From: Marsupella aquatica
Lineage: Eukaryota > Plantae > Marchantiophyta
Length of the DNA: 64,000 nucleotides
Assembly: GCA_973895155.1 (NCBI GenBank)
Contig: OZ316893.1
Location: 2,686,430 to 2,750,429 of the forward strand
Direction: 5' to 3'
The position numbers and the translations under genes were made by a program. The notes beneath the pieces were generated by a model. That model had not been told where the DNA came from and ran no database searches. It worked only from the letters and a program-made list of their open reading frames with translations. Every line of letters starts with the position of its first letter. Position 1 is the stretch's first letter. Shown here piece after piece: positions 150 to 43,529 of this stretch.

Positions 150-3100
150 CACTACACTGTCTGTCGTTCATGATTTAATTGCGGGACTCGAAAGCTTTTA
201 GCACAAGGAATTCGACCTGGACCACTCGTGTATAAACACCTTAATTCCCGATTGAAACCGCCCAATTCATCTAATACCATGACATGACCACATGTCCTAC
301 TCGAGCTTGAAGAATGATAGCACAGAGGTAAAAAAATGGGGGAAGAGCACCTACCCGTCTTGCTTCCGAGAAGTATAACGGAACTTTCTGTGTTTCTATC
401 CATAAGATTTGATAATATAGATGACAATAATGAAGCTTCTCAAAACGATGCCGACGGAGGCCAAGGGGTGACGTCCCTGGCCAAAGTGACGTAGGCCAAA
501 GGGTGACGTAAGTCCAATAAGACCCCTTTTTATCACCGCATAATTGATGCACTCGCCTGTCCCAAGTAGATCAAGTGGAAAGTTGCCTGGAAACATCTTG
601 CATAGCTGCGAGGAAAACGTTTTCCCTAGCATTTCGATTGTCCTTAGCCATTCGATGAATGCCACCTACGCCTTTAGAGCTTTTTCACTTCATAAGATAG
701 CTTCCATATTTGTAGGAATCATGAGTTGACGGGATCTCCACCGAAACCTTTTGAACAAACTCTTGTCCAGGAACGAAGGAACAAACCTAGGCAGTTAGAT
801 TGCTTATCCTCTTCTCCCTGACTGTAGAGTAGAAATTTCTAATAACATGAAAAAAGTATGGGCATTCAGGCTTGTTTGACATAATCTTGGTGAAAATGCC
901 CCCTCTCTTGCCCAACTCTAAGCGAGTGGGGTTGGCCCCACCAATTGGACTAGGGACTGGACTCTCATTTCACATGTCCCCGGGGTCTTCACCTTTTTTT
1001 TTTCAATCCATCACGTGTAAATAAGTATAGGGGTTTTTTTATTGGGTTTAGTAAAATATTTTTGAATTTTTGTTGAAGAACATTAAGGTTATTTTAATAC
1101 AATTTTGAGAATAAGAATAATAAGGTTTTTTAAATCAAAATTGGGAATAAAAATTTATTGATTTAAGTTTTAGGGTGTTTATTCTCCCAAAAATTTGTTC
1201 GTGATATGAGACACCCCTTAGATTGAGACCCCGAGCACATGCCACACTGATTAAGGAGGACTTTACAAGACGTGCAGGCACTTATATATACCACACTACC
1301 AAAAAGACAGGAGCGCCAAACTGGGAGATATGGTCCCAAAGGCAAAAAAACCCAATTAGGGGGGATGGAAGCAAAAGACCCCAAGAAGACCAAAGAGGCC
1401 CAAGAAGTCAAGGAGTAACCTAGCAAATTAAACCAAAGCAAACTGGAGGGCCATTGCACACACTAAATATAGTGTCCTAGGGCTAGAAGCATTTTTTGTA
1501 TCCTTTTATTGCCCCCAAGGTCTTGTAAAACCAAGTGCAGCCAATGGTGTCAGATTAATTTACTAAAAGACAGATTGAGGACCCATTCCACATGAATGTC
1601 AGGTAATCTTTGGCTAAAGTCTTTCTAAATGTGAGAAGGGAAGATCTTATGAAGGACTTGTGGGTCCCTTTTAATATAAATGACTTAAAATAGAAATGGA
1701 CCAAGAGGCCAGAACACTAGACCACCAAGAGAGGTGGTCTAAAATCTAGGACAAAAGAGTGCTCCACATAAGCCAAAATTGGGCTGCACTACATTCCATG
1801 TAAGATTAGTAACAGGTTTGGTTGAAAGTGCCCCCAAGGTTTTGTAAAGTGAACAGCAGAAGTTTCTCCCAAATGGATGGCTCTGATCAGATCTTGGAGA
1901 CAAAAGAAAAAGTGGAAACTGCCCCCTACTTCTTGTAAAGCTTTCTTCTCACTTGTGTTTCAATGAACTTCTGTTTTGGCAATAATTTCAAAACAACAAC
2001 ACAATGACAACTATACAGATGTAGCGGGTATGTAGTTACATGTAATGTCCTTCCCAGACTAATCATCATAACTGCGATGGGACTGTAGCTGCCAGTAGTA
2101 TCAGGGTCATGTACTCTGCACAAATAGCCTTTGTAGACTGACCGCCATCATGCTTGTGGAAGTGCCAGTAAATTTGCTACACTGTACACCAGTGACAATA
2201 TAATTATTTAGTGCAACACCAAAATTAAAGTGGCTCGCACTAATGTGTGTGAACGTTTTTTTAAGATGTGAATCACACCAATTAAGTATGATATATCACA
2301 TTATTTACTTTGCATTGAGAGTCCGCTTGAGTCCCTGTTTTATACGTCAATTCTCAGTGTGCAATATTCAAGGCAAACACATCATTCAGTTCTAGTGTGA
2401 CCAAAAGTGTAACTCACTTCTTGTGAACTGTAAATAGTGTGACACCTGAAATAATGTGACTAACACTATTTTGTGTGACACATACAATTTAAATGGGGCC
2501 ATGCGAGGGGCCTGCAATTAGTATGACTAACACTAATTGTGGTGGACAGTGTAGCATTTTGGATTGTGTTTGGTGCATAATGATTTTTTGTTTTGGCATC
2601 CATTATACATTGTGAGCCAATGTGAGGCTTCACTGGTTATTTTTGATATGTGTAGGTGACCAGATTTAATTTGGGCCTAGTACATACCAATGATATAATA
2701 TAGGGGCAAGCTAGAAATTATGGTCAGTTGGTGGTACATTAGTAAAACACTGGATGATAGTATGGCTCTGGCAAGGGAATTAAACCCAATTTGTTCATTT
2801 TGTGGAAGCATAGATGTTTGCAACCTGATAGGTTGCAGTGAATCCCCTCTTTTGGGCCCTCTTTTCCCTCATATAGTATAGATTACACTGAAGGGTACGT
2901 GATATAGCAACTTTTGAAAGAGTAGAATGTGGACCTTTAGAAATTCTTAAATCTCTCAATTCTTGATGATAAGTAGAGATATTAGACTGGTTGGAAAGAT
3001 AGTTCCAACATGCTTCTAATGTGCTCAAGATAGCCCACTCCTTGGATAGAAAGGGAGATATTGAAGGTCAAACTTTTCCGATGAAAACTTATTGGAAATG

Positions 3101-3634
3101 AGAACTATATATGTCAATGAGTGTAGGTGCAAAAACTGTCAGAGTCCATTGGGATTGCAGGGTTCACTGCATGGGAGCATATATCACTTTTGAAGCTGAG
3201 CGGCAAAAAGTATTGTGAGTATTATGCAGTAGAGCTCAAAAAACCACATCACTCTGCGAGGGCCCAAATTATAGTAATTGTTGAGCTGTCTTGGCTGGTT
3301 GAAAATTTTTCTCAAGCTTATCTTTGAAGTTTAATCAAACCATACAAACTGGTTAGAGAAACAGCCAAAAATATCTTATTTGGAGTTACCTATTGCAAAC
3401 TTGGGGAAAGAAAGCCCCCTTACACACAAAGGTTGGTTCTGGAGACTCTAAGGGACTCCTGCACAACCAATCCCATGCTCCTCATAACCATAGTGTAATG
3501 TGATGATCTGACAGGATTAAAAAGGGTTATTTCAATAGGATATGGTGCTTGACACAATCACTTTCAATTCATTAACCAGTTATAGTATTTTCCAATTGGC
3601 TCGGTCATCACGCATTCCCATCACAACTGACATG
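150..3634 (-). mobile_element. Highly decayed L1-type LINE remnants, interrupted by the MITE and another small repeat
   Basis: Fragmentary W/C-rich minus-strand translations resembling the L1 ORF2 C-terminal region; no intact ORF. May continue on the far side of the hAT. Confidence 0.35.
2180..2551. mobile_element. MITE-like non-autonomous TIR element (372 bp)
   Basis: Ends CACTGTACACCA / TGGTGGACAGTG (1 mismatch) with TA on both sides; AT-rich interior with repeated GTGTGAC/GTGACTAACACTA motifs; no ORF. Confidence 0.65.
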
Positions 3635-3759
3635 CATGTGTGCCCGGTTTGATGTGACGGGCAACTTGTCGAGTTGCCCGGCACGTAAACTCGGCATTTG
3701 CCGGCCTGAAATGCTCTCATTTGACGCATATTCGTTTTTATTCCCCGACTCGACTCGAA

Positions 3760-4540
3760 CTTCTCCCGGCCCGGCCCGAACTCCTCCCGGCCTCTTCCCG
3801 GACCCAGCCCGGCCCCCCCCCCCCCCCTCTACCTCTCGTCACCCGGCCCCGGCTTTACGCCCCGGCTTTAAATCCCGGCCCGGCCCGGGTGGAGGGGGCC
3901 CGGGTGGGGGGGGAGGAGGCCCGGGTGGGGGGAGGGAGGAGGCCCGGCCCGGGTGGAGGGGGGCCCGGGTGGGGGGGTGAGGAGGCCCGGGTGGGGGAAG
4001 GGAGGAGGCCCGGCCCGGGTGGGGGGGGTGAGGAGGCCCGGGTGGGGGGGTGAGGAGGCCCGGGTGGGGGAAGGGAGGAGGCCCGGCCCGGGTGGAGGGG
4101 TGAGGGGGCCCGGGTGGGGGGGGGAGGAGACCGGGTCGGGAGGAGGACGAGGCCCGGGTGGGGGGAGGGAGGAGGGCCGGCCCAGGGGGAAGGAGGCCCG
4201 GGTGGGGAGGAGGAGGAGGAGGCCCGGGTGGAGGAGGAGGAGGCCCGGGTGGGGGGAGGGAGGAGGCCTGGCCCGGGTGGAGGGGGGCCCGGGGAGGGGG
4301 GGGGAGGAGGCCGGGTGGGGAGGAGGACGAGGCCCGGGTGGGGGAAGGGAGGAGGGCCGGCCCGGGTGGAGGGAGGCCCGGGGGGGAGCAGGCCCGGGTG
4401 GGGGGGGGGAAGGAGGCCCGGCCAGGGTGGAGGGAGGCCCGGGTGGGGGGGAGGAGGGAGGCCCGGCCCGGGTGAAAGGAGGGGTGAGAGGAGGGAGGAG
4501 GGAGGCCCGGCCTGGGTTAAGGGAAGATAAGCCCGGGTTT
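3760..4540. repeat. Left subterminal GC-rich array of the hAT (GGCCCGGGTGG/GGAGGA units)
   Basis: Many GGCCCGG(G) units separated by G-runs; C-rich at ~3760-3880, G-rich after. Confidence 0.9.
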
Positions 4541-5198
4541 TAGAGTTATGGATAAACTCAATTGAGATAAGCCATATCTGCTAATTTGGGGTTGTGACGA
4601 TTTCTCGCCTATCTAGTATTTCAACCCCGCTAAATATAGAATGTTTTTCCATTCTAAATTGTATAAAACTTTGAGTTTTTCTCATTAGACACACTTCACT
4701 AAAAGTAGAGCACTCTATGTAAAGAGATAGAAAAGACTTTTGTGCGCGCGTGCTTGGAGGTTTTACTCGGCATGTGGTAATACGCATAATAACTTTTTTC
4801 TTATCCCTTAACATTTAGTGGTACTTGTGGGTATTGTGAAACAAATGTTGACAATGTTGACATTCATGTACGCATGTTTGGAGCTAAAGCTTGACATGTG
4901 ATATTTTACATGATTATCACTAATTGTCTCATATGTTTTCACAATGTCGGCAAATGCTCATTAAATTATAGATATCACATACGTCGGATAGGAATGTTAA
5001 CAACCAGAAAACAAAAGAGAACCGCTGTGCGCATGTTTGGAGTTTGACTCGACATGTGATATTTCACAGTAGTTTTTTTTTCTCGTTTTATTGTTGTTAC
5101 TTCAAAAGACTAACAAATAATCATTCAATTTTTATTAAGTGACTATGTTTAGCGACGTATAAGAAGACACTTTGTGTGTAAAGTTCTTGTTTTCGATC

Positions 5199-8053
5199 AT
5201 GTCTTCCGAAGAAGATAAGTCGGGCAACTCATCAGCTCATTCTACTCCTGTTAGGCACGGTGGAAATCACAATCGAGATCGTAGTGCAAAATTTTCTCCA
5301 GTGTGGAAATATTTTGAACGATGTGATACGCCATCAGCGTGTAATGATATTAATCGTATATATCGAAGATGCAAATTTTGCAAGAAATATACAACGCATC
5401 ATGCAACACGAGCAAAAGCACATTTGATGGGAAACATACACAAAGGAGATGCGCCACCTTGCACAGGCTTGTATGAAGTTGTTGACTTAGATAACATCAA
5501 TAGAATGTACAATGTCATAAAGGTTGACCCATCCATAAAGTATAAACGAAGTGATGGAAGTCATGTTTTGTTATCCATGAGAGGTCGTAGGTCATATAAC
5601 CCATCCAATTCGCAAGCATCAACTCGAGACTCAAATTTTGTTGACCTCGATGAGGATGGAAATATGAGTCATCGAAGTAGAGCATCAAATTTTGCAAACC
5701 CAATCATGGATGCTTATCAAATTCCAAATAGAGCTCATTTGGATAAGTTGTGGGCCAAAGCTTTTTATTCAAGTGGTATTCCGTTCAATGTGTCGGAGAA
5801 TTCTTTCTTCCGTGAAGCAGTCACAGAAACCTCGAAAGGGATTGTAAATGGATATTCTCTTTTGGGTATGCGAAATTTGAGAATGAAATTATTGGAGGAG
5901 GCTAGAGTTGATCTTACAAAGGACATGACAAAAACAATGAAGGAGGCAAAACCTTTTGGATATTCCCTTTCATCCGATGGATGGGAAAATATCCGAAGGG
6001 AACCTTTGATGAATGTCATGTTGTTGAGTTCAAAAGGAGATTTCTTTTTGGATAGTTGGAACGCTGCACAAGCCGACAAGAAAGATGGGAAGTATCTTGG
6101 TGACATGTGGTTAAAATACATAGATGATATTGGCGCCGATCACATCATACGAATTGTTACTGATGGGGCGCCTGCAAATCGTGTAGCAGGTGAAGAGATA
6201 GTCATGAAAAAATATCCGCATGTGACATGGAGTTGGTGTGCTGCTCACGTTTTTAATTTGTTGCTAGAAGACATGTGTGGCCACAAGAATGTAGTGCTAG
6301 ATGAGCGGAAAAAAAATCCATTCAAAATGATTTTTAAGCACTTGAGATGGATAGTTAAAGCAGTTACATCATCATAAAAGTTGTCTGCAATATTTGTGAG
6401 GAAATCTGGGGACAGGAAGTTGTTAAATCCAAATGCAACGAGATTTGCAACAAATTTTTTAATGGCGCAGAGAGCATTGGAGCTAAGAGGAGCTTTACAA
6501 CAAATGGTCATTGATGACAAGTGGCAATCCTATCGTGATCGCCTGCCAGTTCGACCAAAGTCACAGGGGCATATGACGAGGGGAAAGGCAGACGAACTTA
6601 AATCGTGGATACAGCAAGATACATTTTGGGCTCAAGTAAAATCTACAATTGCTTTTTTCCTGCCGTTGGTGAAGATGTTGCGAGAATTTGATGGAGTTTC
6701 ACCACAGTCTCCTTGGCTATATTGGAGCTTGAAAAAAGGAATAGCTAAACTGGAGGCGAGCATGGAGGGTTGTACATTAGTAACAGATTACTTAAAACCA
6801 AAGATAATGAAAGTGTATATGGATCGACGAAAATCACTTACTACTGATTTCATGTTAGCAGCAGCATATCTGAATCCTCAATTTTTCTTCGATGAAGATG
6901 AAGATGTGGCAGGAGATGCAAAACTGTATAGAGGCTTCAATGATTACGTTCGTAGATATGCAGAACACAAGGTGAAGGCAGGAATCAACCATGATCGAGA
7001 TGTGACGACACTTATTTCTGACATCCAAATGCAGGCATTTGAGGCTCAAAAAAATTGCCAAATTCATCGGTTGCAATTAGAGGAGCACAATCGAATATTG
7101 GGAAATTAAGTCCAGGAGAGTGGTGGCATTTGTATGGAGCTGATTACGCGGAGCTAAGATTGATGGCGAGAAGAATCACGCATCAACAAATCTGTGCATC
7201 TTCATGCGAACGAAATTGGAATTTGTACGACTTCATCCATTCAAAAAGCCGTAATAGGTTGACCAATGATCGGGCAAAAGACTTGGTTTTTGTATTCACA
7301 AATTCGAGGGTGCAAAAAGGGCTCATGAAGGTGAGAAACCCTCATACGTCTATGTATAGACAATATGAAGAAAGAACAGCAACAAATGATGGCCCGAGGC
7401 CTACTTCCATAGAAGGATGTCACACTGAACAACATGGTGTTACATGTGCGGCTCTTGGAGAGGATGATGTGGAGGATTTTGATACAATTGATGACGTAGA
7501 TGAGGCTTTGCAAGGATTATCATTACACAATGATAGTCACATGTTGACTCGTATTCCACCAGATACTGAAATAAGTGATGTCGGAGAATGGGAAGATGAA
7601 ATGGATTTAATGATGTTCCCTACAATCGATGAGTCTCAAATTCAGGATGACGAGGACTACTCATTTGATGCAAACTTTGTAGTGCCTTCCCAACCAAACC
7701 CATCCTTCACATACCCAACATTGAATGTACAAAATGATGTCCAAGCAAGTACTTCGTACTTATTTCAATGACGAGGTGCTGCATCGGAGCTCTGTCCTGA
7801 GAGAACAACACCAACTTTGTTTGCGCAACCTGATGATGCACAGTGGGGACAATATGCTTCTCCAGCACAAAATATGTATGAAAGGCAGAACATGACAAAT
7901 CCATACACATCAAGCATACATGCCCGTGTTGGGGCATTTCAAGAATATCATAGCGCAGATCCAGTCCAATGGATGACAAGACAATTTCAATTTGATCGAC
8001 AGTTGCAAGAAAATGAGAACAATAACACAAGGTACTTTTTGTCACAACCTTGA
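5199..8053 (+). pseudogene. hAT transposase (BED zinc finger, DUF659/RNase H-like DDE core, C-terminal dimerisation domain), disrupted
   Basis: BED finger SPVWKYF..CKFC..H..C; SSDGW and IVTDGA (catalytic D,D); WCAAHVFNL (CxxH); PNATRF; EWW..CASSCERNW..HSKSRNRL (E, dimerisation domain). Split by TAA at 6375-6377, a frameshift near the A-run at ~7048-7054 and TGA at 7769-7771; the same frame then continues to 8053. Confidence 0.92.
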
Positions 8054-8165
8054 CATCTGTTTAGGTATTACATGCTAGTACTATACGACAAACTATGATA
8101 TACTATGCCGGATTGTGCATGTCCTATGCAATAAAATATGCTATACTAAACATTGAGTGTGCAAT

Positions 8166-10133
8166 CTACTCATTTCGGTTTTCATTGTCTTGCGCTTCTG
8201 CTTTCACCTCTGCCAGTTGCTGACAACGACGATGGCGACGAATAGATCGCTGCATGTTTTGCTCATCTGTTGTTGGTCGATTGGTCATGGTATATTCCTT
8301 CCACTGTTGGAATCTACCGCTGAATAACAAATTGTCAAAGTCACCATCTGACAAGTTGTATTCATTAACTGTGAAGTTGTCAATGGGCCTTGAATCGATC
8401 ATTGCCATTGCAATACTCTCTTGAGTCATGTCTTCAGTGTCTTGCTGTGTCTCCATTGGTGGCATTTGTTTCAACAAACCTCGTTGCTCATACTCTCGTT
8501 CATGAAATGGTTTCCGACACCAACATTTTTGGCTCTTCTTCATCCACCGAAATAAGCAAGCATGATGCCATAAGTGACCGCATGTTCCCAAAATGGAAAC
8601 AGATTCAGGACCTCATGGATACAAGCACCAAATACATCTTCCATCCTTTTCTCGAACAAATTGGGCCATACTTTCATCGGTCTTCCACTTGTCAAAAAAT
8701 TTCTCTACATCTTCTGGATCCTCCTCCACATCCGGAAAAAGATGAGATTCTCCCGTAGGATCAATCATTTGCAAGTTCATATAATTGTAGTTCTTGCATC
8801 TTGATTTTTTCTTGTCTGACTGACCATCCACCTCAGCAGTGTTCATTTGCTCGATCTCCTCTTGCAGATTGCTTATGATCACCTCTTGTGATGCAACCTG
8901 ATTCTTCAAATCCTGAATGACTCTATCTGCCTCTTGAACTTGTTTCATTTGACTACATTGACCATCCTTTTGGGCAAGTTGTTTGTTGAGCTTTGCGATC
9001 TCCTCCATCTTGTCGTACAGTTGCACCTTGTATTCCTTCACCTCCGAAGTAGTTGCACTTTGAATGGGAATTTTTTCCATTGCTTTCATCTTCAAAAGAT
9101 TATCTTGCAACTTTGACTTATAGTAGTCAATGCTGCCAGCTTCACAAAGGTCAAGACAAAACTTTGTGCGAAGATTGTTCTCGATCAAATGACCAATCTC
9201 TGTGCTCAAACTCTTGCACACAATCTCCATGCTCAATGATTCTTTCTTTGGATCCAAAACACCAGTGAACTTTCCTGGTAAATTGTTACTTGTAGATGCT
9301 GCAATGTTTGATGTTTTGTCCACATATTTTGGTGCGCTGAAACTTTCAGATTTAGTGAAGAGTCATTCCAGTGCAGTCGGCTTATCTTTCTGATGTGCAT
9401 GAATGTCTTGCACATCATGTATCTTTCTTTTTGACCCTTTGTTGGTTGCTTGACTCGACATATCTTTTGTAGTATTTTTGTTGTTCTTCAAACCTGCAAT
9501 GTCCAGGACAGACTGATGCACAGAGTGAGTCATCTTGCCCTCTTCTGTTTCCCAACGGTAATCCACCTTCCACTTGAGAACAAATTCAGCAATTAGGAGT
9601 CGAAGAAAAGGAGGATAAACCGAGCTTGTTTTGCCTTGCGCTTTCTTTGGAGCATACTCTCGAAATCTTTGCTGCCAATGCTTGCCAATTTTCACATGTG
9701 TTACCTTGGACATTGTGTACTTCTCTTGCATCCAAGACCTTGTGGCCCATAAATTTTCATCATCAAAAATGATTTTCATCCATTTTTGGAACTCCACACG
9801 TGGCATCAATATCTCCAATTCTTTGGCGTTGATGGGCCATTCATTGTGAGGAGGTTTCACATTTGGCATTGTGATATTCCATTCAACATCCTTGGTGTCC
9901 TCATCCATTTTGGTTATGCTTTGCCCTGCATGATTGCTACTCATTCCAATGTCCTCGTCTATGGGTTGAGAATCTTCTTCAGCGTATTGATCCTGAGACC
10001 AAAGGTGTAAATCCTGAGCAGGTTGCAAATATAAATATGAAATCTTTTTAGATTTTTTCTCCTCGTCGGATTCCAAATCCCATTTTCCCATCCTTGCAGA
10101 TTCTACAATAACAAAAACATTTTTAGCATTCAT
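8166..10133 (-). pseudogene. Cargo gene: unknown N-terminal domain + coiled coil + C-terminal RING-H2-like finger (putative E3 ligase), two in-frame stops
   Basis: ORFs 9363-10133, 8613-9323 and 8166-8591 share one frame, separated by single TGA codons (9363-9365, 8613-8615). Read through, the C-terminus is CIWCLYP*GPESVSILGTCGHLWHHACLFRWMKKSQKCWC (C2..CxHxxHxxC..W..CxC). Heptad-like K/Q/E-rich segment upstream. Likely start is the ATG at 10091. Confidence 0.8.
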
Positions 10134-10275
10134 TCACCATACACCCTTCAAGATAAAATTGATAACAAAATACAATGAAGCAAAATGAGTAATACATTTA
10201 ATTCATATGACATGATTAAATAGACAATAGTTCATGACATCTATCATTGTCATTCACGATGAAACTATGAAATCC

Positions 10276-11934
10276 CTAATCTCTTAGATAAGGACTATTG
10301 TGCTGAACTAATCTACAATCTTGGAATGTTCTCATCATTCTCAAACTCCAATGAACACAATCCATTCTTTTCTTGACATCAATGGCCATCATGTCACGTA
10401 TCATAATATCCAATTTAGGGCCATGCTCTCTAGCATTCCAACCCCTATTCAAATATCGTGTCATTGGGGTCATTCCATCCCAATTTTCTGTGAGTAATGT
10501 CTCAAAGACATTGCCCAAAGCATATACGTCAGTTGCTTGACTGTACTCTGCTGGATCGGAACAAACTAGCTCAGGCGCCAATTGTGGATATTGTTTTTGA
10601 TATGCAATTGCTTTCTCTGTAGGGGTGGGCCACATTCAATTTTGTGGTAATGTGCATTGTGACTTGTGTTTGGACAACCCAAAATCACATATTCCTACAT
10701 AAACTCTAATTGCCAAATCATCATCGTGATCAAAGTGAAGAAGGATGTTTCCAAAATGAAGATCACAATGGAAACGGTCATGTGCATGCAAATATTGCAA
10801 GGTCTCCAATAGAGCCATAGCAATCCCCAAACGATGTTCCAAAAAGAGTTTCTTTTCGGATATGAATGTCACATCAACCTCAGAAGTGGATTGTGTCTTC
10901 CCTTTGCTCTTACTCCATTTCCCACACTTATCTATGAAACTTCCCAAGTCACCTCCATTGTAATGGTCATAGATAAGTTTTGGTGGATCTTCGATAGTCA
11001 TTGCCAAGGCCCCAATTATTCCTTTGTGATTCAAACCTCCCATGAGCACTTCTTGTAAAGCATCTGTTCGTCTCTTGTGTCGGTCTCCATCCTTAAATCG
11101 TTTTGCAACCAGTGTTGCATTTCGAGGAATCAATGGGCAATCCAATATATGACATATGAACACATGTCCTTGGATGCTGCTTCCAATGCGATGCAAATTC
11201 GATACTTGCTCCCTCCTCAAGAAATGAATACTCCTGACCATGGGAACAACTCGTGATGGACGCGTTCCTCTATCTGCAACCTCCACGCCAATCTCTCCAA
11301 ACTGCACGACCTTGCTCGCATATTTAACATTACTCTCCGATTTGGCCATTGCTAACTCTTTGCTCCATTTAGCTAGCAAATCTCTTCTATGTGTGTATAG
11401 CCCAGGAACTCCAAGCATGACGGCCCCAGCCTCATCCAAATTGGATTCCAACTTGTCCCAAAGATTCACCGCAAAATTCAACGCCAAATGTTCAACAAAT
11501 CCACCTGGCTTCTCAAAATCACTTATTAAGGAAGCAATTTCATCTCGGGTCATGTCCTCTTCTTTCTCCGCAGTCTCACGCATGCAACGTCCCATGTCAT
11601 TTAAAAGCTTTTTGTAACCCTCTGCTCCATGCATAGCATATTTCCTCTCAAAGCCATCCTGCTCATACTGTGCTGGCAAAGTGTAGGGATATAGAATCTT
11701 TTTCCAAATCGCAACTAACACATGTTGCCTTCTCTCTTTCAATGCAGCACCAATTGCTCCTCCTCTATGTTTCCGTTTCCCTAAGGTTTTACCATGTTTA
11801 CAAATTTCTAAGGTTTTGTGAGCATTCCTTAGAGCATTGAGAGCATGAGGATCTGGTTGGTATCCCTCGTTTAGCATGGTCTTCATTGCCTCAAAAAGTT
11901 TCATATACTCTACACTCACATTTGCAGCGGCCAT
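10276..11934 (-). pseudogene. Cargo gene: protein kinase (ePK fold) with N-terminal extension, one in-frame stop
   Basis: Subdomains in order: IGSSIQGHV (Gly loop), LVAKRF (Lys), QEV (alphaC Glu), YDHYNGGDL, YLHAHDRFHCDLHFGNILL, ICDFGLS, LAPEL, TDVYALG, DVKKR. ORFs 10636-12042 and 10276-10635 are contiguous in frame across TGA 10636-10638. First ATG at 11934. Confidence 0.88.
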
Positions 11935-12647
11935 GTTCTCAAGTAACCACAACAAGTTGTAGGACAAAGAAAAGGCGCTTACGGAGTGTGTTGGCTGCTT
12001 GCCGAGGGTATGGATGATGCAAGTACAATAAAGCTGGATCAAGAATCCTGAAATATCATTTCACACTTTGTGTTGGTACCAATAATACCCAAGCAATGAA
12101 ATTTTAATATTTGTTCAATTTTTTATTCGTTTGTTTAGTACTTTGAAAGTAACAACGATGAGGGGGAAAGACAACTATGTGAAATACCACATGCCAAGCC
12201 GAAACTCCAAGCATGCGCACAAAAGATGTCTTTTTCATCAAGTTGTTACATTCCTATTCCAATCTATGTGAAACCTATAGTTTAGATGTCATTTGTAAAT
12301 GTTGTGAGAATATTTACAAGGAATCGAGATATCCATGCAGAATACCACATGCCGAGCGGAAACTCCAAGCATGCGTACATGAAAATCTCTATCCTAAAAA
12401 ATACTCCACTCAATTCACAAATCACACTAAACTGTTAAGGCGATATTAGGTTCTCTCATACGAAATACCACATGCCAAGCATAAGCTCCAAGCATGCGCA
12501 TACGTGAGAACACTAATATCCCTCCAAATTAAAACTAAATGTTAAAGTCATACATGACAAAGCATAGCAAAAAAAAAGACCAAAAACAATTCAAAAACGA
12601 ATGAACTAAACTCAAAACAAAGCAAAACATAAGCAAAAGCAAGAAAA

Positions 12648-12736
12648 ACTTACCAAAGGTCTCTCCTACAAAACAAGCAAACTTAGTAATGAGAAGTGAC
12701 TAATGAGAGAAAGTGAGGAGACCTCCTCACTTTATA
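12648..12736 (-). promoter_or_regulatory. Putative TATA box, leader exon and splice donor for the cargo transcript
   Basis: On the minus strand: TATAAA (12736-12731), a CT-rich leader, then a perfect GTAAGT donor (12653-12648). Candidate acceptors are TTTCAG at 12048 and TTGTAG at 10103. Confidence 0.5.
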
Positions 12737-12737
12737 G

Positions 12738-13200
12738 GCCCGGTCCCGGTCTGCCCCCCCCCCACCTCGCGAGCCGACCCCGGGTGGCCGAGCCCGATCC
12801 CCCCCGGCGGCTGCCCTCCTCTCGCGTGACCTAACCCTAAAGTCCCCCCCGGCCCGGCCCACCCCCGCCCGACCTCCCGGCCGGGAGGGGGGGCTTTAGG
12901 GTCCGGGCCGCGAGAGGGGGGGGCTTTAGGGTCCGGGCCGGGAGGGGGGCTTTAGGGTCCGGGCCGGGAAAGGGGGGGGGGGGGGCTTTGGGGTCCGGAC
13001 CGGGAGAGGGGGGGGGGCTTTGGGGTCCGGGCCGGGGGAGGTTTAGGGTCCGGGGTCGGGAGGATGAAGGATCCGGGGTCCGGGCCGGGGGGGTTTAGGG
13101 TCCGGGGCCGGGAGGGAAGAGGACCGGGAGTACTCAGGCCGGGACCGGATTTACTCGGGCCGGGACCGGATGATGCCGACCGGGAGAGACCGGGTGTCGG
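12738..13200. repeat. Right subterminal GC-rich array of the hAT (G-run + CTTTAGGGTCCGGGCCGGG units)
   Basis: About 7 units of G(n)CTTT(A/G)GGGTCCGGGCCG at 12885-13110, plus CCGG repeats toward the TIR. Confidence 0.9.
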
Positions 13201-13262
13201 CTTGCCGGTTGACGGCCTTAAAACGGCCTATTTGCCGGGCAAGTCCAAACCGGGCATGTGTG

Positions 13263-14150: not shown

Positions 14151-14477
14151 TGTAGCCAATCTTTCAATCGTTCACCAAGGGTGACATTTGCCACATAGGT
14201 GAAAACGGAAAAAACCTTGAAAATCCTTTAGCCCCGATCTAATCATTCTAAATTTAAGTAACCAATATTCTTAGCATCTTCTTCTTCACCCGTTCACCAA
14301 GGGTATCATTTGGTGAAAAGAATAAACCCTGAAATCCAATAGGCATAATCTTACGTTTATAGTCAAATCTAGGGAGATCTAACCCTCCATTCAAATGAGA
14401 TAACTAAGTAATATTATTAGAATCTTCTCCTTCACCCCTTCTGCCAAGGTTACCTTCTCCACCGAAAAGAATCACCC

Positions 14478-14893
14478 TCGGGGCATCACCTTGAAAATTA
14501 CACTAATCAAGGATCGACCACGGGGCATCACCTTGAAAATTACACTAATCAAGGATGACCCTCGGGTAACCATGAAAATTACGCTAATCAGGATCACCTT
14601 CGGGGCATCACCTAAAATAAAATTACGCTAATCAGGATCACCCCCGGGGCATCACCTAGAAAACAATTACGCTAATCAGGATCACCCCCGGGGCATCTTG
14701 AAAATTACGCTAATCAGGATCACCTTGGGAACACCTTGAAAATTACGCTAATCAGAATCACCTTCGGAACACCTTGAAAATTACGCTAATCAGGATCACC
14801 TTTGGAACACCTTGAAAATTTACGCTAATCAGGATCACCTTCGGAACACCTTGAAAATTACGCTAATCAGGATCACCCTCGGGGTATCACCTC
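14478..14893. repeat. Minisatellite, ~38-44 bp unit, ~10 copies
   Basis: Unit approximately GGG(G)CATCACCTTGAAAATTACGCTAATCAGGATCACCTTC repeated head-to-tail. Confidence 0.92.
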
Positions 14894-15557
14894 ATCAGCT
14901 CAGTGAGAGAGAGAGACAGAGAGCGAGAGATCGTCAGCAGACAGAAATAGCGAGACTGTCGGCACGGACACACACGCACACATGTATCTTCCATCGAAAG
15001 AACGGAGCTCGCGCATTTCTTGGACCTTTCTGAGACGGCCCACCATTTCAGACTCTCTCAGTGTCGAATTACGTGACGTTTTGCGGGCCCTTCCCTTGTC
15101 TCCGGTCCAGCTTCCCTTGTTCCCAAAGTCTGGGAACAGTGGAGAGAACTTGAGGTCCAACGCGCTATGGGCGTGTATGCTTCGAAAGTCGTGGCCTTGA
15201 GTCCTGAGATTCTACTTGGTAGCATTATCAGGAACCTTTCAGCGTGAGACCAGTGGCGTTCGCTGAGCTCGGGTGCAAGTTCAGAAGATCACGGTCTACA
15301 GTTTTGAGGTTGTGTGACTATAAAGCCGCGTTTCTACGAGAAAGGACCTCATTCACTTTACAACTTTACTATACTGCAAAAGCTCGAAATCCATCTTTTT
15401 ATCATCCGAGTCTGCAAAGACGCTTAGATCGTAGTGTTCGTGAACGGCAGAACTTTGCAAAACTTGACCGGTTCTGTGTTTTGCCGAAGATCACAATCAC
15501 ATCATTTGTTGCAGGGAAGACTGCTTGAGAACACTAGTGCAGCGTGAGCGAGTATTG

Positions 15558-16307
15558 ATGGACACCCGGGAGGGTGCTGCTCAGGTGAAGCAACAGCATC
15601 ATCAAGTCCTCGTGTACACAGAGACTCCGAAGCCAATCGTTGTGGGTGCGGATGATTTCCAGAACTTGGTTCAAAGTCTTACTGGTGGGAAGCGAAAGAG
15701 GAAGTCGGTCACCTTCGCCTTAGTAAATGCAGGGGAAGCAGCAGAAGCCCAGCAGGAGTATTTGCCGCAGGCACCACCACCAGCCAGGGTGCAGCAACAG
15801 CCATTGCTGGATTACTTGGACAGACTGGACAAGGAATGCCCTCCACGATCCACTGGGGCCCAGCGAAACCGAGGTTTCTTCGCCACAGCAGGACTAGTTA
15901 AAGGAGTGAGGAGGGAAGAAGGTTTGCCGCAATTTGACACGTTTGATTCTCCTTTGGGCTCTTCAGCCCGCAATTTTGAGCCCAAAGATGCAGAAATGGC
16001 TGAGAAAGCATCGACTACGGTTTGCAGTGTCAAGGTCTTGACTCCGATTAGTTCCCTCCAAGGTTGCAAGCGCGTGTGTTCTGAATGGGTCCCCGAATGG
16101 ACGGGCTGCCTTTCACCACGCTCCGGTCAGGTAGTCGAGGAAGCAAAGAGGACTGCGGCCCTTTGGAATCGATCCGGGTTAGGGCCTTGGAATATAAATC
16201 TAGAGAACATTGCAGAAAGTGATGGCTGCGGCCGGGATGACGATTGTGGCTATCCAGTGGACATCCTCTACTACAAGGGAGAAATCACTATGGTTGAGCA
16301 GACTTAG
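15558..16307 (+). CDS. VQ-motif-containing protein
   Basis: ADDFQNLVQSLTG matches the plant VQ motif FxxhVQxhTG, followed by a basic KRKRK NLS-like patch. TATA-like CTATAAAG at ~15319. The 3' end is uncertain because of the overlapping ORF 16210-16761. Confidence 0.75.
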   Translation: MDTREGAAQVKQQHHQVLVYTETPKPIVVGADDFQNLVQSLTGGKRKRKSVTFALVNAGEAAEAQQEYLPQAPPPARVQQQPLLDYLDRLDKECPPRSTGAQRNRGFFATAGLVKGVRREEGLPQFDTFDSPLGSSARNFEPKDAEMAEKASTTVCSVKVLTPISSLQGCKRVCSEWVPEWTGCLSPRSGQVVEEAKRTAALWNRSGLGPWNINLENIAESDGCGRDDDCGYPVDILYYKGEITMVEQT

Positions 16308-18327
16308 AAGAGAGAGAAGGAGGCTCCTCATGAACTTTGCAAGTCTTCAGTCTGGTGTTTATGCCCTTCCAAACACGAGCAGTAGCACCGATGAACTTCT
16401 CTTCTCCAATGGTTCTGTGGAAGATCTGCTTGACGCCCAGCCCCGACTGCAAACTTGTGGTCATTTAGATGGGGCTTGGATGCCAGCCCAGGCCAGTCAG
16501 AGCTTTGAAGGATGGAGGACGGGACGTATTTTGGCAAGGCAAATGATGGGTGTAGGCACCGGCACGGCTGCCAGTTGCTCCAACCGAGTATTGAGCGTCC
16601 TACATCTGCGTGCATCGATACCTCCTTTCAAACAGGTAATGAAGAACTCTTTAGAGGGAAGTGCAGATATAACGCGAGCTCACGTTGAAGAACTCGTTCG
16701 AGAACGGATCGATCGCCCACTGTTCCTTTCTGTTTCTGTGAGAAACAGAAATGGAATGTAGGAGTCGTAGAGCTTTCTGAATACCGGGCCTTTGCCACCG
16801 TCGCGGAACAAGTTGACATACAGGTTGGAAAGGGCACGGGAATTTCAGTCTAATAACTGATTGAATGGCTGTTTGACCGAACTGAAGGAACCCATTGTGG
16901 ACATTTGACAGAACGATGACCACCCTATGGACGCAATGTCTTCCACTGGGTGTCCTTCTGGCGTGAGATGAAATACTAAGTGGTCAGCTCTCGGTGAGTC
17001 CCAGACCGCTGAGATCTGAGCGAGCACCTGACTGATTCAATTTTCTGATGCAAGCTCAACTGGATTGAGAAGACTGACGCTTTAGAATGGGTATTATCTA
17101 TGTTCTATTTACTGACAGTCGTTTGTGGTAGCCTTTTCGCCGGGTCAGAGGTCTTCCCACTCATGTGAGCAGATTTGTTGAACGGGGAGTTTTATTTTCG
17201 TGAGACATACCATTTTTGCTGGACAAAGAAAGCTTGAAGCCAACCCAGTGCGAAGGCAAATTTTCCCCAGTTGGTTGAATGTTTTCTTCCATCAATGCAC
17301 TTATCTTTATCCTGACGAAAGAATTACTTGTAAGAGTCATTCCAGATTGGTACTTCGTTGCTTAACAATTGAGACGCACGCCACTATGGATGGAACAGAG
17401 CCAAAACACTTCCCGCCGTTGCTGCTATGCACATTTCTTGACATAAATTCCTTGATATCTGGGCACTGATGTAGTGAAATAGAATCTTTGATGATGTAGC
17501 GCTTGTCTGTAAGTATCGATCCATTTCCAGCACTCTCCTCCCCGTCTGCTACTTTGTTCACATGCGGCTTTGAAGTGCAAGTAACGTATCACAGGGTCTA
17601 ACGTAAAACCCCGAGGCCTCGTACCTTCCTCCACTTTCAGGGAGCAGGCTTTGCCCATGCTTCAATTTCCTCTCGGCACTGAAAACTTCGAATACTTTGT
17701 TACCGAGTTATAGCATCCAAAAAAGCACAATTCGTGCTTGAACTTTCACGACAATTTTCTTAAAACGGGCCTTTCGTCCCATTCAGACCTTAAAGAGTAT
17801 TTCCGAAACTAGTGGAAGGTGGGAGAATTTTCACATAGTTGGACTTGGTTTCAGGGGAAGTTAAGGTGGTGAGTCGGGTATCGACTTCTGCTTATTTGAT
17901 AGTTCAGGTTGCACTTTGCACCAAGAGTGAACCCTGTCAAAGTTACTTTGAGTTCTTGTGCCCAACTTTGTGCGCCACAATGAAGACTTTACCCGCAGTT
18001 TGTGAAAGGGTAGGATCTAGATAGACACAAGCTAAGAGTGACAAGAGACAACTATCAAGAATAATGCTTTGAGGTGCACAGACTGATATTCGCGAAGTTA
18101 TTGTCACATCGTCCTAATAAAGGGAATGTGATTTTCTACAGTTGAAATATAGTCAATTTTAAACACTGCTTAGTATATCTTGATAGTATATTTTAGTTCA
18201 TTCATTTAAAAAAAACAAATGGCATAAGTAGTTTTGATTTTTCTATTTGATGTAGATAACCTTTTGAAACCAAAAAGTATTATTTGAGACAATTGTCTTC
18301 AAACAATGTTTCCAACTATTGGTAGAC

Positions 18328-21806: not shown

Positions 21807-25141
<3,335 letters not shown>

Positions 25142-27268
25142 TTTCAATCACCTCTCTGCTACCAAAGGTGATCTCTCTCTCTCTCTGTGTTTCGTTTCTC
25201 TCTGAGAGAAGATTCAGTGCCCAACAATCTTCAAAAGCGCCCACCCTCCCCTGTGAAAGCCTTATTAGTAGTCTCAATCGTCCACGTGAGAGGCTTTAGC
25301 AGAACGCAATCTTTCCGGATCACCCACTCTCTCCTCTCCTCTCCTCTGTCGAAGGAGTTGTGTAGTAGCGACGGGAACAATCCAGACGCACACCCTTTTC
25401 TCTCTCGCTCTCTCTAGCTCTCTCTCGCTCTCTCCTGTCTCCACGTCTGCGCTGATGAGGTGCTCGGCTTTGGTCGCGTTGCGAGGCACCGAGCCCTGAA
25501 CCCGGCCAATGAGAGCCATCCAAACCCAATCTACTGTAGCCTCTAATTTCGTCAGCGCCGAAGGCCCTTCGCTCACTTTGCGTACATCTCACAGAGAACG
25601 GCGCCCGCATACCTAGTCCACCTCCGCGATTCGATTGCGAACGCTCTTCTTCGCGAGTTTTCGCGATTTTATTGCGAACGATGTTTTTCGCGATTCGGTT
25701 GGGAACCATTCTTTTGTGATTAAATTGCGTTGTCGCGACTCGATTTTTGGACGATGTTTTCGCGATTTCGATTGAGAACGATTGTTTCGCGATTCAATTC
25801 CGTTGTGGCGATTTGATTGGGAGACAATTGTCGCGCGGTTCACTTAGGTTGTCACTATTCAAGAGGGGGTCTCAAATATGGGGCCGTCATAGGTGTTCTT
25901 GGGAGGTTACCATTGCCTGTGAAGAGGGCTGCCAGTGAGTTTAATGGTAGCAAGGAATTTGAATACCTCAATACTTTTAGGTAGGTATGTGTGACTTCCA
26001 GGTGGAGAAACTAGTTGTGATGGTGTCTGTTCAGCACTAATATGCCCTCAGCATACACAGAAGATTGAGTACATGTGGCCCGGCTTGCAAGTTCACACTT
26101 AGCCCGTGATGCCCGTGATGCCCGATTGGCCAAGGCCCTGTCTGGGAACTGTGAAATTCCTCGAGAGGAGTGTGTGGGCTAGCCTGAGGATGTCCTGCAC
26201 ATTTTTGGGCCACTTCCGCCGGAACCTACCTCGGACCCCAATACTTGAGGACCCATTGATAATGTTTTGCTCAAAAACCACTCATCATGAATAAGTTACT
26301 TGACCCCACTTTTGTATCTTTTCTTCTCATGTTTGTGTTATGTTTTGATTTTAAAAATAATTCATATACTATGAAGACAGTGTCTATCAATAAAATGCTC
26401 ATAACATTCTTACATTTGCATCACAAAATTATTTTGATGTTGCATATATAGACACCAAAATATTTGCTAGTCAGGTATAAAAGTTTAAGAATTGGGAACA
26501 AATATTTAATAGTGCCTACCCACATATTTCCCTGGCTCCCCTAGAGACTTTTGCCAGTTTGAAGAGCTTCCTCACAACATACAGACAGTCCAGGCAGAGG
26601 ACTTCACAATTTAGACCATCTCATTGGTAATATCGTTTTCTTCTTCTTCAACTTTTTGGCAAGTTAGGCGGCAAGAGCTATCAGCTCTTAAAGTGCCATA
26701 TAAGAGGATAAGTGTCCAAGATTTCTCCCTTTTTCACATTCTTCTCCTCTTAAATTGCCACTAGCCATATAAAAGAGAAAGTGTCCAAGATTTCTCTTTT
26801 ATTCACATTCTTCTCCTCTCCTATGCCATTTTGTTCCACAATTTCACGAAAAATATACTATACAGGTAAACACCCAGATTTTTGTCATAGCTAGTGGTGG
26901 TTTAAGGACATGAGGGCATCAGAAGCACAGTGGAAAGCTTTGCCATCCATTCCAGATTAGAACTTGAGGGTTGCTCTGAAGTAGCAAATGGCTCAGATCT
27001 TGTCCAAGATACTTGGAGATTAAAGACCTAGTCTCTATGAGGATTACTTATTCAACACTGTCCTAAGATTCTCAGGCATACTCGTTACACCAAAGGAGAG
27101 GAGTGGCGTGTACACCTAGCCAAGGCTTAGGTGATGCAAGGTTGACTCACTGGCTCTTTGAAATGCCTTTAAATCATGTGAGAAGATAATGTTTGGATAA
27201 TGTTCTCTTCTGGGTGCCGTCAAGCTATAAGCTCTGACAAGTGGGGTCCATCTACACATGTATTCCCA

Positions 27269-34100: not shown

Positions 34101-36401
34101 GCAATTAGTCAAAGTTGCCGTGCTCGTTCCTCAAAAGACCCTCCTGGCCAATGACATAAATTTGTCAAAGTCCCCGTGCTTCCCTCAGTTGGTATACGGT
34201 AAGGAGCTTGTGGTGGGTCTGGCATCAATAGGCCGTAGCGTGCGGCTGGAAGGGTGGACAGTCATGTTCTTAGCCACGCACGTTGCAAACTTTAGGGGCG
34301 AGACGAAACCGTTTTTTTCGGGCCCGTTGGCGAGGTCCAAAAACGAGTCCAAAACCTGACCGTGAGATGCATGCTGTGCTCACTGTAGCCCTTCGCTGAG
34401 AAGCTTCATTGAGCACTAGCCTGGCCCTTCAGTGCTCGTGCTCAGTCCCTCACAAAACTAAAGGTGACATGCTCACAGTGACCTTCCAAAGCAGCAGAAC
34501 GAGTTTCACCTCTAGTCTCATATGTGTAAAATGCCACTCAGGTTTCGATACCACTTAGCGTCATCCAGCAGATACTTCCTTTTGTATTCCCGAATTTTTC
34601 CAGTTGCGATGTAGTTTCGCCCTCAGCTCAAAGTAGTCAATGCTCAGTACGTTACCTTGACAATGGAGGACCTACCATTTACACGAACCTAGTTGAAATC
34701 ATTGGTTCATTTGCGAATTAAAGTTCAATAAAATTAGTGGTTCGATAAAATTAGTGAATCATTCTAATCTCAGATTTACATTCATCTCCTTTCCTTTCAT
34801 CAAATAGCAGTGTAGAACAGATCATTACAATTATGTTGCAGTCATTAATGATCCCTGAGAAAGTAAGATCGAACAGACGCCGGCTCAGTATAATTCATGC
34901 TAGCTGCAACCCCTCCTTCGGACAACAGCATTAGTTGAGAAATGACAGTCAGTTGAGTACTCATGAAAAAATCACAGGGATGGGATTACGCGATTTCTTA
35001 ACCAATTGAAGCTCTGGCACCTTGTACTCATCACGAATTTAATTGGGGAACTAACGTGAGACAGTGCATGTCGCCTGATTTGAACAAATCTTCTAACGAA
35101 TAAACTGGCGTCGTAATCACCAATTAATTTGTCATTTATTGCGAAGAAATTCCCAACGTTGCTGCAATCTAGCAGTCTCAAACGAGCGTTGCTTACACGT
35201 CCTGTGTCTACTGCAGTCGTCTAAGTTTCTGCCACAAAGCATTGAATTTAATAATGGAGTGATTTTTCTAATTGCTTCAGCTCGAAGCCATTCTCGTCGT
35301 TCCAGAGGTGTCAGTCTCGTCGTTCCAGAGGTGTCATGAACACTACAGAGTAGCTGTAGACTGTCAGCACGAATGATCAATTTGAGTAGTCTGCTGAGAC
35401 CAGAGCTGACAGTACTACCAGCTACAATCCAATAAATGGAGTCCGTGAGCTCCAAGGTCTGTTTCATTGGCAAAAATTAGTCAAATTCCACCTCCTCCCA
35501 ATCCTTCGCCACTTGTCTAAGTCGTTCTTTCCGAGCACAAGTCCATGAGTCATAGGGCATTGGCCATTGGGTCACTTTAGCATAATTATAATATCTTGAG
35601 TGGTGTGATGACGCGACACGCCTTTAACTAGAGTAATATATCGTGCGCGTTTTAAACAATGCATTCTTCCAATTCTTCCAATTCTTCCAATTGCGAGAAG
35701 CTGTACGGAAGATTTCAGAAAGCGGAAACTTTCTCACAGTCTCACGTGGCCATGGTAAGCGTTTTGTTCTTGATGTCTACTTCAAGCCGATCATGGTTCT
35801 CGAGAAGAACAAATAGTTCAGTAAGTTGCCAATTGCGGTTCTCGACAATTTCTTTTGTTCATTAGGTTGCCAATCGTGGTTCTCGACAATTTGCTTTGTT
35901 CAGTAGGTTGCCAATCGCGGTTCTCGAGAAGAGAAACAGAGGGGTGTGGCACTTGGCCAGCGCCGTGGAAAGGAAGTAATCTTCTGAGGAAAAAGTCTTC
36001 ACAAAGACGACATAACTAAAGGCTTCAGGTCCCCCTCGACTGTTGAATGGTTCTTTTCCAAGTTTCGGCAGAGTAACAATAGTGATGAGAAGTGCGGATG
36101 GAAGGCTGGCGGAGGCATCATTGCCTTCCGTAGCTTTTGATATGACTTTCATGTTTTTTCACTCCGTGAGAGAAAGCGGAAGTGTGCACTGCTGTCTGAG
36201 TGTGCTTCAATGAGGCTATCCCAAGAGCTAGCATAATTTAGCCCGGTGGAGCTCATGACACCATAGGATAGAATTGAACGGTTGCGAGAATGGAGAATTA
36301 GAACACAGCGGAGGCAAACCCCTGTCAGGTTCTTTCTCAAGTTCGAAATACCAGCGAAGGAGTTTTATGTGCCCTTGCCTCTCAATCTGATTGAGTTGGC
36401 T

Positions 36402-41840: not shown

Positions 41841-43529
41841 TATAGTCAGGTAACCCAGTGCCCACCAACTCACTAGTCAATGTTCACCAGGAACGCAATC
41901 ACCAGCTCACCCTTGAGTTGACCCATCTATGAGCTCTCAACGTGATTATAACTAGACATCAAGCTATTGCTAATCCAATTTAATTGTTGTTGCAAAAAAG
42001 TTGGATGTGCAGTGCTCAGGAGAATCACTACAATCAGTGTTGTTGTTAGCAGAACAGACACTAATAACTAGGCCAGCAATCAGTGTTGTTGTTAGCAGAA
42101 TAGACACTAATAACTAGGCCAGCAATCATGTCTCCTTATATTTTCTTATGCACTCTCTTTTGCACTTTGCCAACATGCCCAAGCATATTTCTTCCTCTGC
42201 CAAGTTCCTATGTAGCACATGAGGAGATAAAATAATCAGAAGACAGCATCTGGCCTATTGGACAGGATGACATGAGATATGGAGGGAATGGGTGGCAGAG
42301 ATAGAGGCAATGACACTGTCAAAGTCACAAAACTACTTTGTTACAACATCAAAAATTCAAGAATTAAAGAGACACTCTCAATTTTTCCAGGATATCAAGA
42401 ATTCCAAAAATAATCGAAGACATCCAATCTGTGATACGAATTTTCTTCTTGTGATGGGGAGAGTTTTTCTAGGGAAAGATTTTACTATCCTCGAATTGAT
42501 GAAGATCATGTACAATGCGCATAATGAGTAAGTTGGTTTTCCTACACCCTTTTGTGGATGGAGTGACTGTATGTTTGTACCATTAGTGCCAAAAGCCCTG
42601 ACAATGTTCTTTGATATCAAATTGAAGGCAGAGAACCCTAGTGTATGCTATTTCTTTGCCTTCACTCCTCGTAGCAATAGCCAACCTGCAAAAGCCATTA
42701 ATTAGCGTGAAGACACATGAGAGAATTCATGGTCATATATGATAGGCCGGAAGGTGCCTTTTGAAGGGTTCTACAAACATAGATTTTGATTCTACGCGTG
42801 CAAGGCTTAAACAAATTTTAAATTATTACCTGGGAAAAACATAAAAACCAAATTACAATTTGACACATATAGGGTTTAAACAAAATTGTAACCTGGGCAC
42901 AACAAAAAAACCAAATTACAATTTTATAGCAAAAATTTTATATACACATTTTCAAATTGGCTAAAATATGTACTAGCAAGGTATTGGAATAATGCACACC
43001 TATATTTCAGTGGCATATAGAAGTCAGCTCCTAGGGGGGTCACTTCCACGGAAGTGGCATATCAGGTGCGACAAAGTATAGGCCCATTTAAATGGGTGTG
43101 GCCTCAAGGGCCTCAATCCAAGGGGTGTCCCATATCACGCACGAAGTTTGGGGGAAATAAACACCCTAAAACTTAAGTCAATAAAGTTTTTTGAGGAACT
43201 TTGTTACCTTTAACTCGATAGAATATTCCCAAATTTGATTTCCAAAAACCCTATGATTGCCCACACAGGCATGACTTTATGGTAGTTCACTTAAATATAG
43301 ACTGATAGGTCTTGGGTTCAACTATTGTGGCTGACTCTTCCCTTTCTATGGGGTTTCATAGATTTCCTCCTTAGGGGTTTCACTTCCATAAAAATGACAC
43401 ATCACGTGCGATGAAGGATACAGTCATTTTATTGGTTCTAAGGGAAGACTTAAGAATTTATGCAGAAGAACAATAGGGTCTTTTAAATTCTATTTTTGTT
43501 GGGTATTTACTCTTACGTCTAGGTTAGGT

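Follow-up and report, generated by a model that had tools for sequence, protein, structure and literature searches.

TET/JBP-encoding hAT7 families of rust fungi contain a conserved accessory gene that is proposed to counter silencing (Kojima, 2025; PMC12730594; this and the other articles are cited from the portions of their text available to us). TET/JBP accessory genes pass between transposon superfamilies, including hAT7, Dileera, IS3EU, and others (PMC12730594). VANC binds short motifs that are arrayed in the noncoding regions of its element (PMC5735166), and Spm3 yields TnpA and TnpD from one gene by alternative splicing (bioRxiv 10.64898/2026.08.24.746577). We identified a hAT element of ~9.6 kb in a 64,000-nucleotide stretch of the Marsupella aquatica genome (contig OZ316893.1, positions 2,686,430–2,750,429; hereafter ‘the window’). 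The element spans positions 3643–13254 of the window and contains three genes: a transposase gene on the plus strand and a kinase gene and a RING gene on the minus strand. The kinase and RING genes have likely long been accessory genes of the element, and the cassette that they form is very probably a part of it that is under selection rather than a passenger.

An initial annotation of this DNA had taken anti-silencing accessory genes to be undocumented for hATs, which is wrong given the published TET/JBP hAT7 families (PMC12730594). Like those families, the M. aquatica element is a hAT with whole, conserved accessory genes for which a role against silencing is proposed. It differs from them as described in the available text in being a plant DUF659-type hAT with an 8-bp target-site duplication (TSD), in carrying a kinase and a RING gene (protein modification in place of DNA oxidation), and in having, within the cassette, a duplicate of the transposase’s upstream block.

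The element is bounded by perfectly matching 9-bp terminal inverted repeats (TIRs; left, CCCGGTTTG, 3643–3651, plus strand; right, CAAACCGGG, 13246–13254, minus strand), each of which occurs once in the window. Identical 8-bp TSDs (CATGTGTG) flank it at 3635–3642 and 13255–13262. GC-rich subterminal arrays lie at the left end (3760–4530, CCCGG/CCGGG units) and the right end (12740–13200). These arrays (~1.5 kb together) contain 49 of the 68 CCCGG and 49 of the 71 CCGGG words in the window, and the left array is a likely transposase-binding region. The 8-bp TSD, the short TIRs with subterminal repeats, and the transposase domain set identify the element as a hAT. It shares with the plant hATs Ac, Tam3, and Tag1 an 8-bp TSD, short TIRs, subterminal repeats, a BED-like finger, a DDE core, and a dimerization domain, but is 9.6 kb long, has two extra genes, and has TIRs that start with CCCGG. 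Most hAT TIRs start with CA or TA. The target site (3630–3642) includes CATGCATG, presumably an RY-like word, and the TSD has CATGTG in common with the internal 41-nt motif described below, which may be chance.

Much of the layout in the initial annotation was borne out. It had described a single TIR/TSD-bounded element with a transposase gene on the plus strand and, convergent on the minus strand, a ~550-amino-acid kinase gene and a ~640-amino-acid RING gene (552 and 641 amino acids by our measurement), and its figure of 112 bp between the convergent transposase and RING stops is exact. Its 142-bp gap between the kinase and RING genes was measured to an upstream ATG at 10133; homologues begin at the ATG at 10091, which gives 184 bp. 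Both cargo genes had been called intronless, a description that holds for their coding regions and not necessarily upstream of them, where donor- and acceptor-like sites before both ATGs hint at 5′ introns.

The transposase gene (5199–8053, plus strand), recognized by Pfam domains and motifs, is broken. It encodes DUF659 (Pfam accession PF04937, E = 6e-28) and Dimer_Tnp_hAT (Pfam accession PF05699, E = 4e-8) domains, both above cut-off. The BED-like finger, the D..D..E motifs, CxxH, and the dimerization domain are all represented, with WKYF/CKFC/H..H, SSDGW, VTDGA, CAAH, and SSCERNW as the corresponding sequence motifs. Two stop codons (6375 and 7769) and a frameshift in an A-run near 7046–7052 interrupt the frame. 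For all three element genes, the leafy liverwort Calypogeia fissa is the only named source of relatives; its transposase homologues are 75–77% identical, make up all six members of one cluster, and are dispersed copies on contigs of five different lengths.

The kinase gene (10276–11934, minus strand) encodes 552 amino acids and is interrupted by one stop codon (10636–10638). The predicted protein, which matches Pfam Pkinase/PK_Tyr_Ser-Thr (E ~1e-14), begins with a helical region of ~230 amino acids that contains a basic cluster, followed by a tyrosine kinase-like (TKL-like) kinase domain. The Gly-loop, VAK lysine, alphaC Glu, HCDLHxxN, DFG, and APE motifs are all present, with HCD in place of HRD. 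Relatives of the kinase form eight clusters at 45–72% identity (among 7995 candidates scored), and the catalytic loop HxD(L/M)HxxN is found in all 18 of the family rows listed. C. fissa homologues (three accessions, likewise dispersed) are 71–74% identical. In a quick IQ-TREE phylogeny of 75 rows, built without a true outgroup, the starred sets that contain the element kinase have 5, 16, and 18 rows, and the C. fissa copies are nearest to it. Intact full-length proteins occur among the relatives of the two cargo genes (P0012, P0021, and P0025).

The AlphaFold model of the intact relative P0012 (predicted local distance difference test score, pLDDT, 84) has its best fold matches to plant RLCK, IRAK, and Roco4 kinases (Z 22–23, root-mean-square deviation 2.5–3.1 Å over ~240 residues, ~20% identity). 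No fold match covered the N-terminal region in a search with the whole P0012 model. By its motifs and fold, the protein appears to be a catalytically equipped, TKL-like eukaryotic protein kinase (ePK) with a bilobed fold. The same matches indicate that it has no close host kinase, the nearest solved kinases being ~20% identical, and no named host kinase family appears among the close matches. IS3EU elements are also DNA transposons with a kinase gene opposite to the transposase (PMC12730594). In comparison with what the available text describes for them, the M. aquatica element belongs to another superfamily, and its kinase is a conventional ePK with a TKL/IRAK/RLCK-like fold and not an alpha-kinase.

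A profile search of 1.84 billion representatives recovered 18 proteins at E ≤ 1e-30, 63 at 1e-10, and 870 at 1e-3. Beyond the family lies a wider, unnamed kinase clan with HNDL/WNGG motifs. One clade of this clan aligns to the kinase family including the N-terminal helical region (hhalign 99.8%, 418 columns), and another aligns over the kinase domain. Clan proteins P0068–P0136 are 440–680 amino acids long and have an HNDL(H/S)xxN loop, a WNGG hinge, and an xDWG motif.

A metagenome scan gave three loci from 211 pattern matches, of which two (L001 and L002) contain family members. The third, L003, comes from bacteria, encodes an unrelated kinase, and was excluded. The ratio of nonsynonymous to synonymous substitution rates (dN/dS) between the element kinase and that of L002 is 0.13 (NG86) or 0.26 (LWL85), with ~60% of fourfold-degenerate sites different, and between L001 and L002 it is 0.11 or 0.25. 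The kinase is under purifying selection (dN/dS 0.1–0.3).

A viral origin of the kinase/RING family was considered and is unsupported. IMG/VR searches with kinase, RING, HNDLS-clade, and L001-transposase queries returned no family member. Matches in the viral search were 16 weak, generic kinases (E 2e-5 to 6e-4), and fold matches in BFVD were likewise generic kinases at 11–20% identity. The prokaryote genomes searched gave no matches.

The RING gene (8166–10091, minus strand), identified from Pfam, homologues, and conservation, encodes 641 amino acids and contains two stops (9363 and 8613). A conserved N-terminal domain (approximately amino acids 60–200) is followed by a basic cluster, a coiled coil, a RING-H2-like finger, and a conserved helical tail. 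Relatives form three clusters at 45–47% identity (among 2990 candidates), with intact members of 632–643 amino acids; the C. fissa homologue (one accession) is 47% identical. Conservation peaks in the N-terminal domain, the RING, and the C-terminal tail, and comparison with the intact relative P0025 gives 66% identity in the N-terminal domain, 83% in the RING, and 25–31% in the linkers. The best PDB sequence match of the finger is RNF165/Arkadia (E = 7e-5). The finger retains a Trp after the sixth ligand and an Arg after the last, which we take to be E2-contact residues, and the protein is a candidate E3 ligase. The AlphaFold model of the RING protein was unusable (pLDDT 37). Basic clusters recur near amino acid 50 in 15 of 17 kinase N-termini and near amino acid 225 in three of four RING proteins. 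This conservation suggests that both proteins may be imported into the nucleus.

The M. aquatica copy is dead, with five stops and one frameshift over its three genes and ~1% decay in each. At three of the five stops, intact relatives have Q, R/W, and W, as expected of C-to-T or G-to-A decay. Neutral simulations over ~6.4 kb of coding sequence (30 runs each) gave a mean of 5.0 stops at 1% divergence and ~106 at 30%. The five stops fit ~1% neutral decay, and all three frames were therefore open when the copy inserted.

The transposase gene and the cassette are each preceded by a related noncoding block. The two blocks (4746–5108 and 12499–12141) are inverted relative to each other and 68% identical over 365 nt (E = 3e-43). 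Each contains three copies of a 41-nt motif. Copies in the transposase block (4746–5108, plus strand) start at 4743, 4867, and 5026 (spacing 124 and 159), and those in the kinase/RING block (12141–12502, minus strand) start at 12502, 12379, and 12221 (spacing 123 and 158). The six copies score 39–57, and none occurs elsewhere in the window; a matrix built from the kinase-side copies recovers the transposase-side copies at 39 bits, with the next best site in the 64 kb at 15. The kinase-side block also matches the region upstream of the L001 kinase (65% identity over 173 nt, E = 5e-19). There, upstream of a kinase 47% identical, the same matrix finds two full copies at 33 and 28 bits, the maximum in 300 shuffles being 13.7. 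A TATA-like box and a TCTCATTAG word precede both blocks and, at 4662–4690 (plus strand), form the putative transposase promoter.

To judge from sequence, the kinase-side block is a diverged, paralogous copy of the transposase’s upstream block. The block is noncoding and has been conserved while synonymous sites saturated, which implies a function. Its presence on both sides ties the cassette to the element and argues against a nested insert and against Pack-type capture. The shared motifs suggest that transposase and cassette may be under joint control. VANDAL/VANC and Spm/TnpA are likewise plant DNA transposons with accessory genes and short-motif arrays in noncoding regions, as far as the available text describes them (PMC5735166; bioRxiv 10.64898/2026.08.24.746577). 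The M. aquatica element differs from VANC/TnpA systems in its enzymatic cargo, in its 41-nt motif with three copies per block, and in that its anti-silencing role is a prediction. A Pfam search gave no sequence match to VANC/TnpA factors.

The right end of the element contains a putative promoter and 5′ intron (12648–12736, minus strand), with a TATAAA box (12736–12731), a possible first exon, a donor-like G/GTAAGT at 12653, and a T-rich tract after it. A second donor-like word, GTAAGC (11977–11982, minus strand), is located 48 nt upstream of the kinase ATG, and the same word occurs at the same distance in L001. A T-rich, acceptor-like site (10103–10122, minus strand) ends 11 nt before the RING ATG; TGTAG followed by 11 nt and ATG is also found in L002. 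The RING ATG follows the kinase stop by 184 nt in the element and by 182 nt in L002, and in P0024 the peptide upstream of the RING start is compatible with an acceptor. Minimum intron size rules out an acceptor within the 48 nt between the GTAAGC donor and the kinase ATG. This donor would be an alternative one for the RING mRNA. These sites suggest that the kinase and the RING protein are likely produced from one right-end promoter as two alternatively spliced mRNAs. Quite plausibly, the kinase would be translated from an unspliced or early-ending mRNA, and an intron running from donor 11982 to acceptor 10103 would take out the entire kinase frame (1.9 kb), so that the spliced mRNA would encode the RING protein. 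Alternative splicing would then give two proteins from this element as it does from Spm3 (bioRxiv 10.64898/2026.08.24.746577).

The element is probably a recently decayed hAT whose accessory kinase and RING protein were likely made from one promoter and are predicted to be nuclear and to counter host silencing. We favor the counter-silencing role by analogy with VANC. How it might work can be proposed only tentatively: a factor that binds the shared 41-nt motifs, with the RING N-terminal domain as first candidate, might switch on both halves of the element and bring the kinase and ligase onto a host repressor. The two enzymes would then modify or remove this repressor at the motif sites, in the manner of VANC/TnpA but by protein modification.

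That the cargo genes are integral to the element had been proposed in the initial annotation, partly from a low level of decay similar to that of the transposase, and a dN/dS below 1 in the cargo had been named there as support. Decay is indeed equal and recent in all three genes, dN/dS in the kinase is 0.1–0.3, and integral genes are further supported by intact relatives at 45–72% identity and by the shared block. Recurrence of the three-gene layout in several independent insertions had also been named as support, but neither of the two related metagenome loci shows the complete layout, and one of them has a different transposase beside the kinase. For the competing idea, a separate nested element at 8100–12600, no TSD or TIR of its own was detected. 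The annotation’s suggestion that the pair could mark and degrade host silencing factors is a hypothesis.

Several observations weigh against the counter-silencing reading and the parts on which it is built. Neither of the two related loci is a second complete three-gene element, and none of the C. fissa accessions listed for the three genes (partial lists) are neighbors. In L001 (5.8 kb), an intact kinase with the upstream block precedes, on the same strand, a DUF6729 frame (E = 2e-11) and a DDE-transposase-like frame. L002 (1.6 kb) contains the first 33 codons of a frame that resembles the RING gene in position and start; it probably continues into a RING gene after the kinase, to judge from these features, but its peptide matches weakly (9 of 2000 shuffles did as well as the best of four comparisons, and 52, 423, and 860 did as well as the others). 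dN/dS was computed for the kinase only, L002 itself has two stops, and the element–L001 kinase pair is saturated. The RING-H2 Pfam matches (E 4e-5 to 2e-4) score 24.1 and 22.4 bits, below the cut-offs of 31 and 27.3, and although the eight C3H2C3 ligands are invariant in all four complete fingers, the last pair is an atypical C-x-C. The RING N-terminal domain has no family or Atlas match (NCBIfam, PHROGs, and Atlas gave nothing useful), and that it binds DNA is a guess. The splicing model is based on short consensus words. Finally, the CpG observed/expected ratio is 0.49–0.71 in the element, which is thus not CpG-protected.

The L001 contig contains no RING or hAT sequence; no RING gene lies within 3.6 kb after the kinase, and the contig ends inside the transposase gene region. 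Atlas neighbors of its DDE-transposase-like frame are DUF6729, MULE, and ISL3 transposases (0.93–0.81). We presume this DUF6729-type transposase to be Zisupton/KDZ-like, possibly from a bryophyte element; PF18758 (KDZ) gave no match to it at E ≤ 0.5. This arrangement reflects either insertion of a second transposon immediately after the kinase or carriage of the cassette in another superfamily as well, as is the case for TET/JBP genes in rust fungi (PMC12730594). The kinase is in a transposon context under both readings. The DUF6729/DDE transposase gene at L001 positions 2527–5821 contains introns, and acceptor-like sites are found 163 and 393 nt after the kinase stop.

The cargo genes could be integral to the element and yet serve transposition itself, by regulating the transposase (activation or turnover) or by adjusting, at excision breaks, how the host repairs DNA or progresses through the cell cycle. 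The dN/dS values, the shared block, and the equal decay fit this role as they fit a counter-silencing function, the upstream block that the cassette has in common with the transposase implies that the two are expressed together, and IS3EU elements have an alpha-kinase gene opposite in orientation to their transposase (PMC12730594, from the available text). We regard it as unlikely, since the L001 kinase is found beside an unrelated DUF6729-type transposase, with which a host target fits better. Ordinary hATs, moreover, move without such genes. The two genes might instead be a poison-antidote pair in which a toxic kinase is checked by the RING ligase, which would favor those cells or spores of a haploid-dominant plant in which the element is retained. 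Production of both proteins from a single promoter would suit such a pair, a ligase would be a natural antidote, and the kinase is non-RD and divergent, with close relatives that belong to no named host family. We give this little credence: the kinase of L001 is intact with no RING gene in the 3.6 kb that follow, and no sign of toxicity is seen in the sequence.

Evidence on the origin of the cassette bears on two further explanations. A nested element at 8100–12700 in a plain hAT, for example a nonautonomous part of a DUF6729-type transposon, would agree with the presence of the L001 kinase and upstream block beside a non-hAT transposase. Across two candidate junction zones we found 51 direct-repeat pairs of 6–7 bp, but none of 8 bp, and adjoining inverted repeats did not exceed 2 bp. 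The kinase block is paralogous to that of the hAT transposase and decay is equal in all three genes, which makes nesting highly improbable. Pack-type capture, in which two host genes were taken up by chance and carried neutrally, has a precedent in a hAT of Pseudocercospora fijiensis that took up a whole histone H3 gene (PMC6710886), and the absence of a second three-gene copy among the related loci would agree with it. From the available text, the P. fijiensis element is alike in being a hAT with a whole gene, but its cargo is a recent host gene and its copies are inactivated, whereas the M. aquatica cargo has no close host gene and is conserved over saturated distances. The cargo frames are whole, intact relatives exist at saturated synonymous distance with kinase dN/dS of 0.1–0.3, no named host gene is close (the nearest solved kinases are ~20% identical), and the kinase has a paralogue of the transposase’s upstream block. 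GC content at third codon positions also points away from capture, if weakly: it is 0.34–0.43 in the element, compared with 0.44–0.66 in two host HSP70 exons and 0.58 in the AIG1-like gene described below. We consider capture of this kind very unlikely.

A broader possibility, which we regard as doubtful, is that bryophyte DNA transposons share a portable cassette. It would comprise the three-motif promoter block, a divergent TKL-like kinase within an intron subject to alternative splicing, and another slot occupied by a RING ligase in hATs or by a DUF6729-type transposase. If true, transposon anti-silencing by phosphorylation and ubiquitination of host proteins would be the first of its kind, and transposons would carry the whole of the large unnamed HxDLxxxN/WNGG kinase clan.

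Fungal elements provide precedents both for hATs with accessory genes and for DNA transposons with kinases, and the class is in this sense known; a plant hAT with an ePK and a RING gene under a duplicated block was not found in the literature searched. No kinase or kinase-plus-RING hAT is described in that literature, whose coverage stops short of Repbase Reports, most subscription journals, and supplements (Table S1/Data S1 of Kojima could bear on this). The available portions of PMC12973397, PMC9297572, and PMC10045372 contain nothing on kinases in hATs. Known counter-defenses are DNA-binding activators (VANC and TnpA) and DNA-modifying enzymes (TET/JBP), and a kinase and RING protein under the transposase’s own cis-elements would add protein modification. 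The substrates of the cassette would point to silencing factors that are important in bryophytes, and the intact relatives allow direct assay in Marchantia or Physcomitrium. Kinome counts would be affected if the large unnamed clan of kinases found in bryophyte and soil sequence data consists, as it may, of transposon cargo and not of host signaling genes.

The window contains several features beyond the element. A plastid-type HSP70 gene with introns (21807–25147, minus strand) and an intronless AIG1-like GTPase gene (36267–37865, plus strand), whose N-terminal half of ~260 amino acids is of no known family, lie to its right. A GC-rich, intronless frame (15495–16800, plus strand) has no Pfam match at E ≤ 0.05 and contains an FQNLVQSLTG motif, which we take to resemble that of plant VQ proteins. 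A young copia element (43496–49869) has a few stops in pol and 300-nt terminal repeats that are 99% identical, each with an 18-nt tandem array. Other tandem arrays are found at 14471–14883 (period 38, ~10 copies), 55261–55946 (period 105), and 59683–60940 (period 366). At the end of the window (63001–64000), GC content falls abruptly to 11%.

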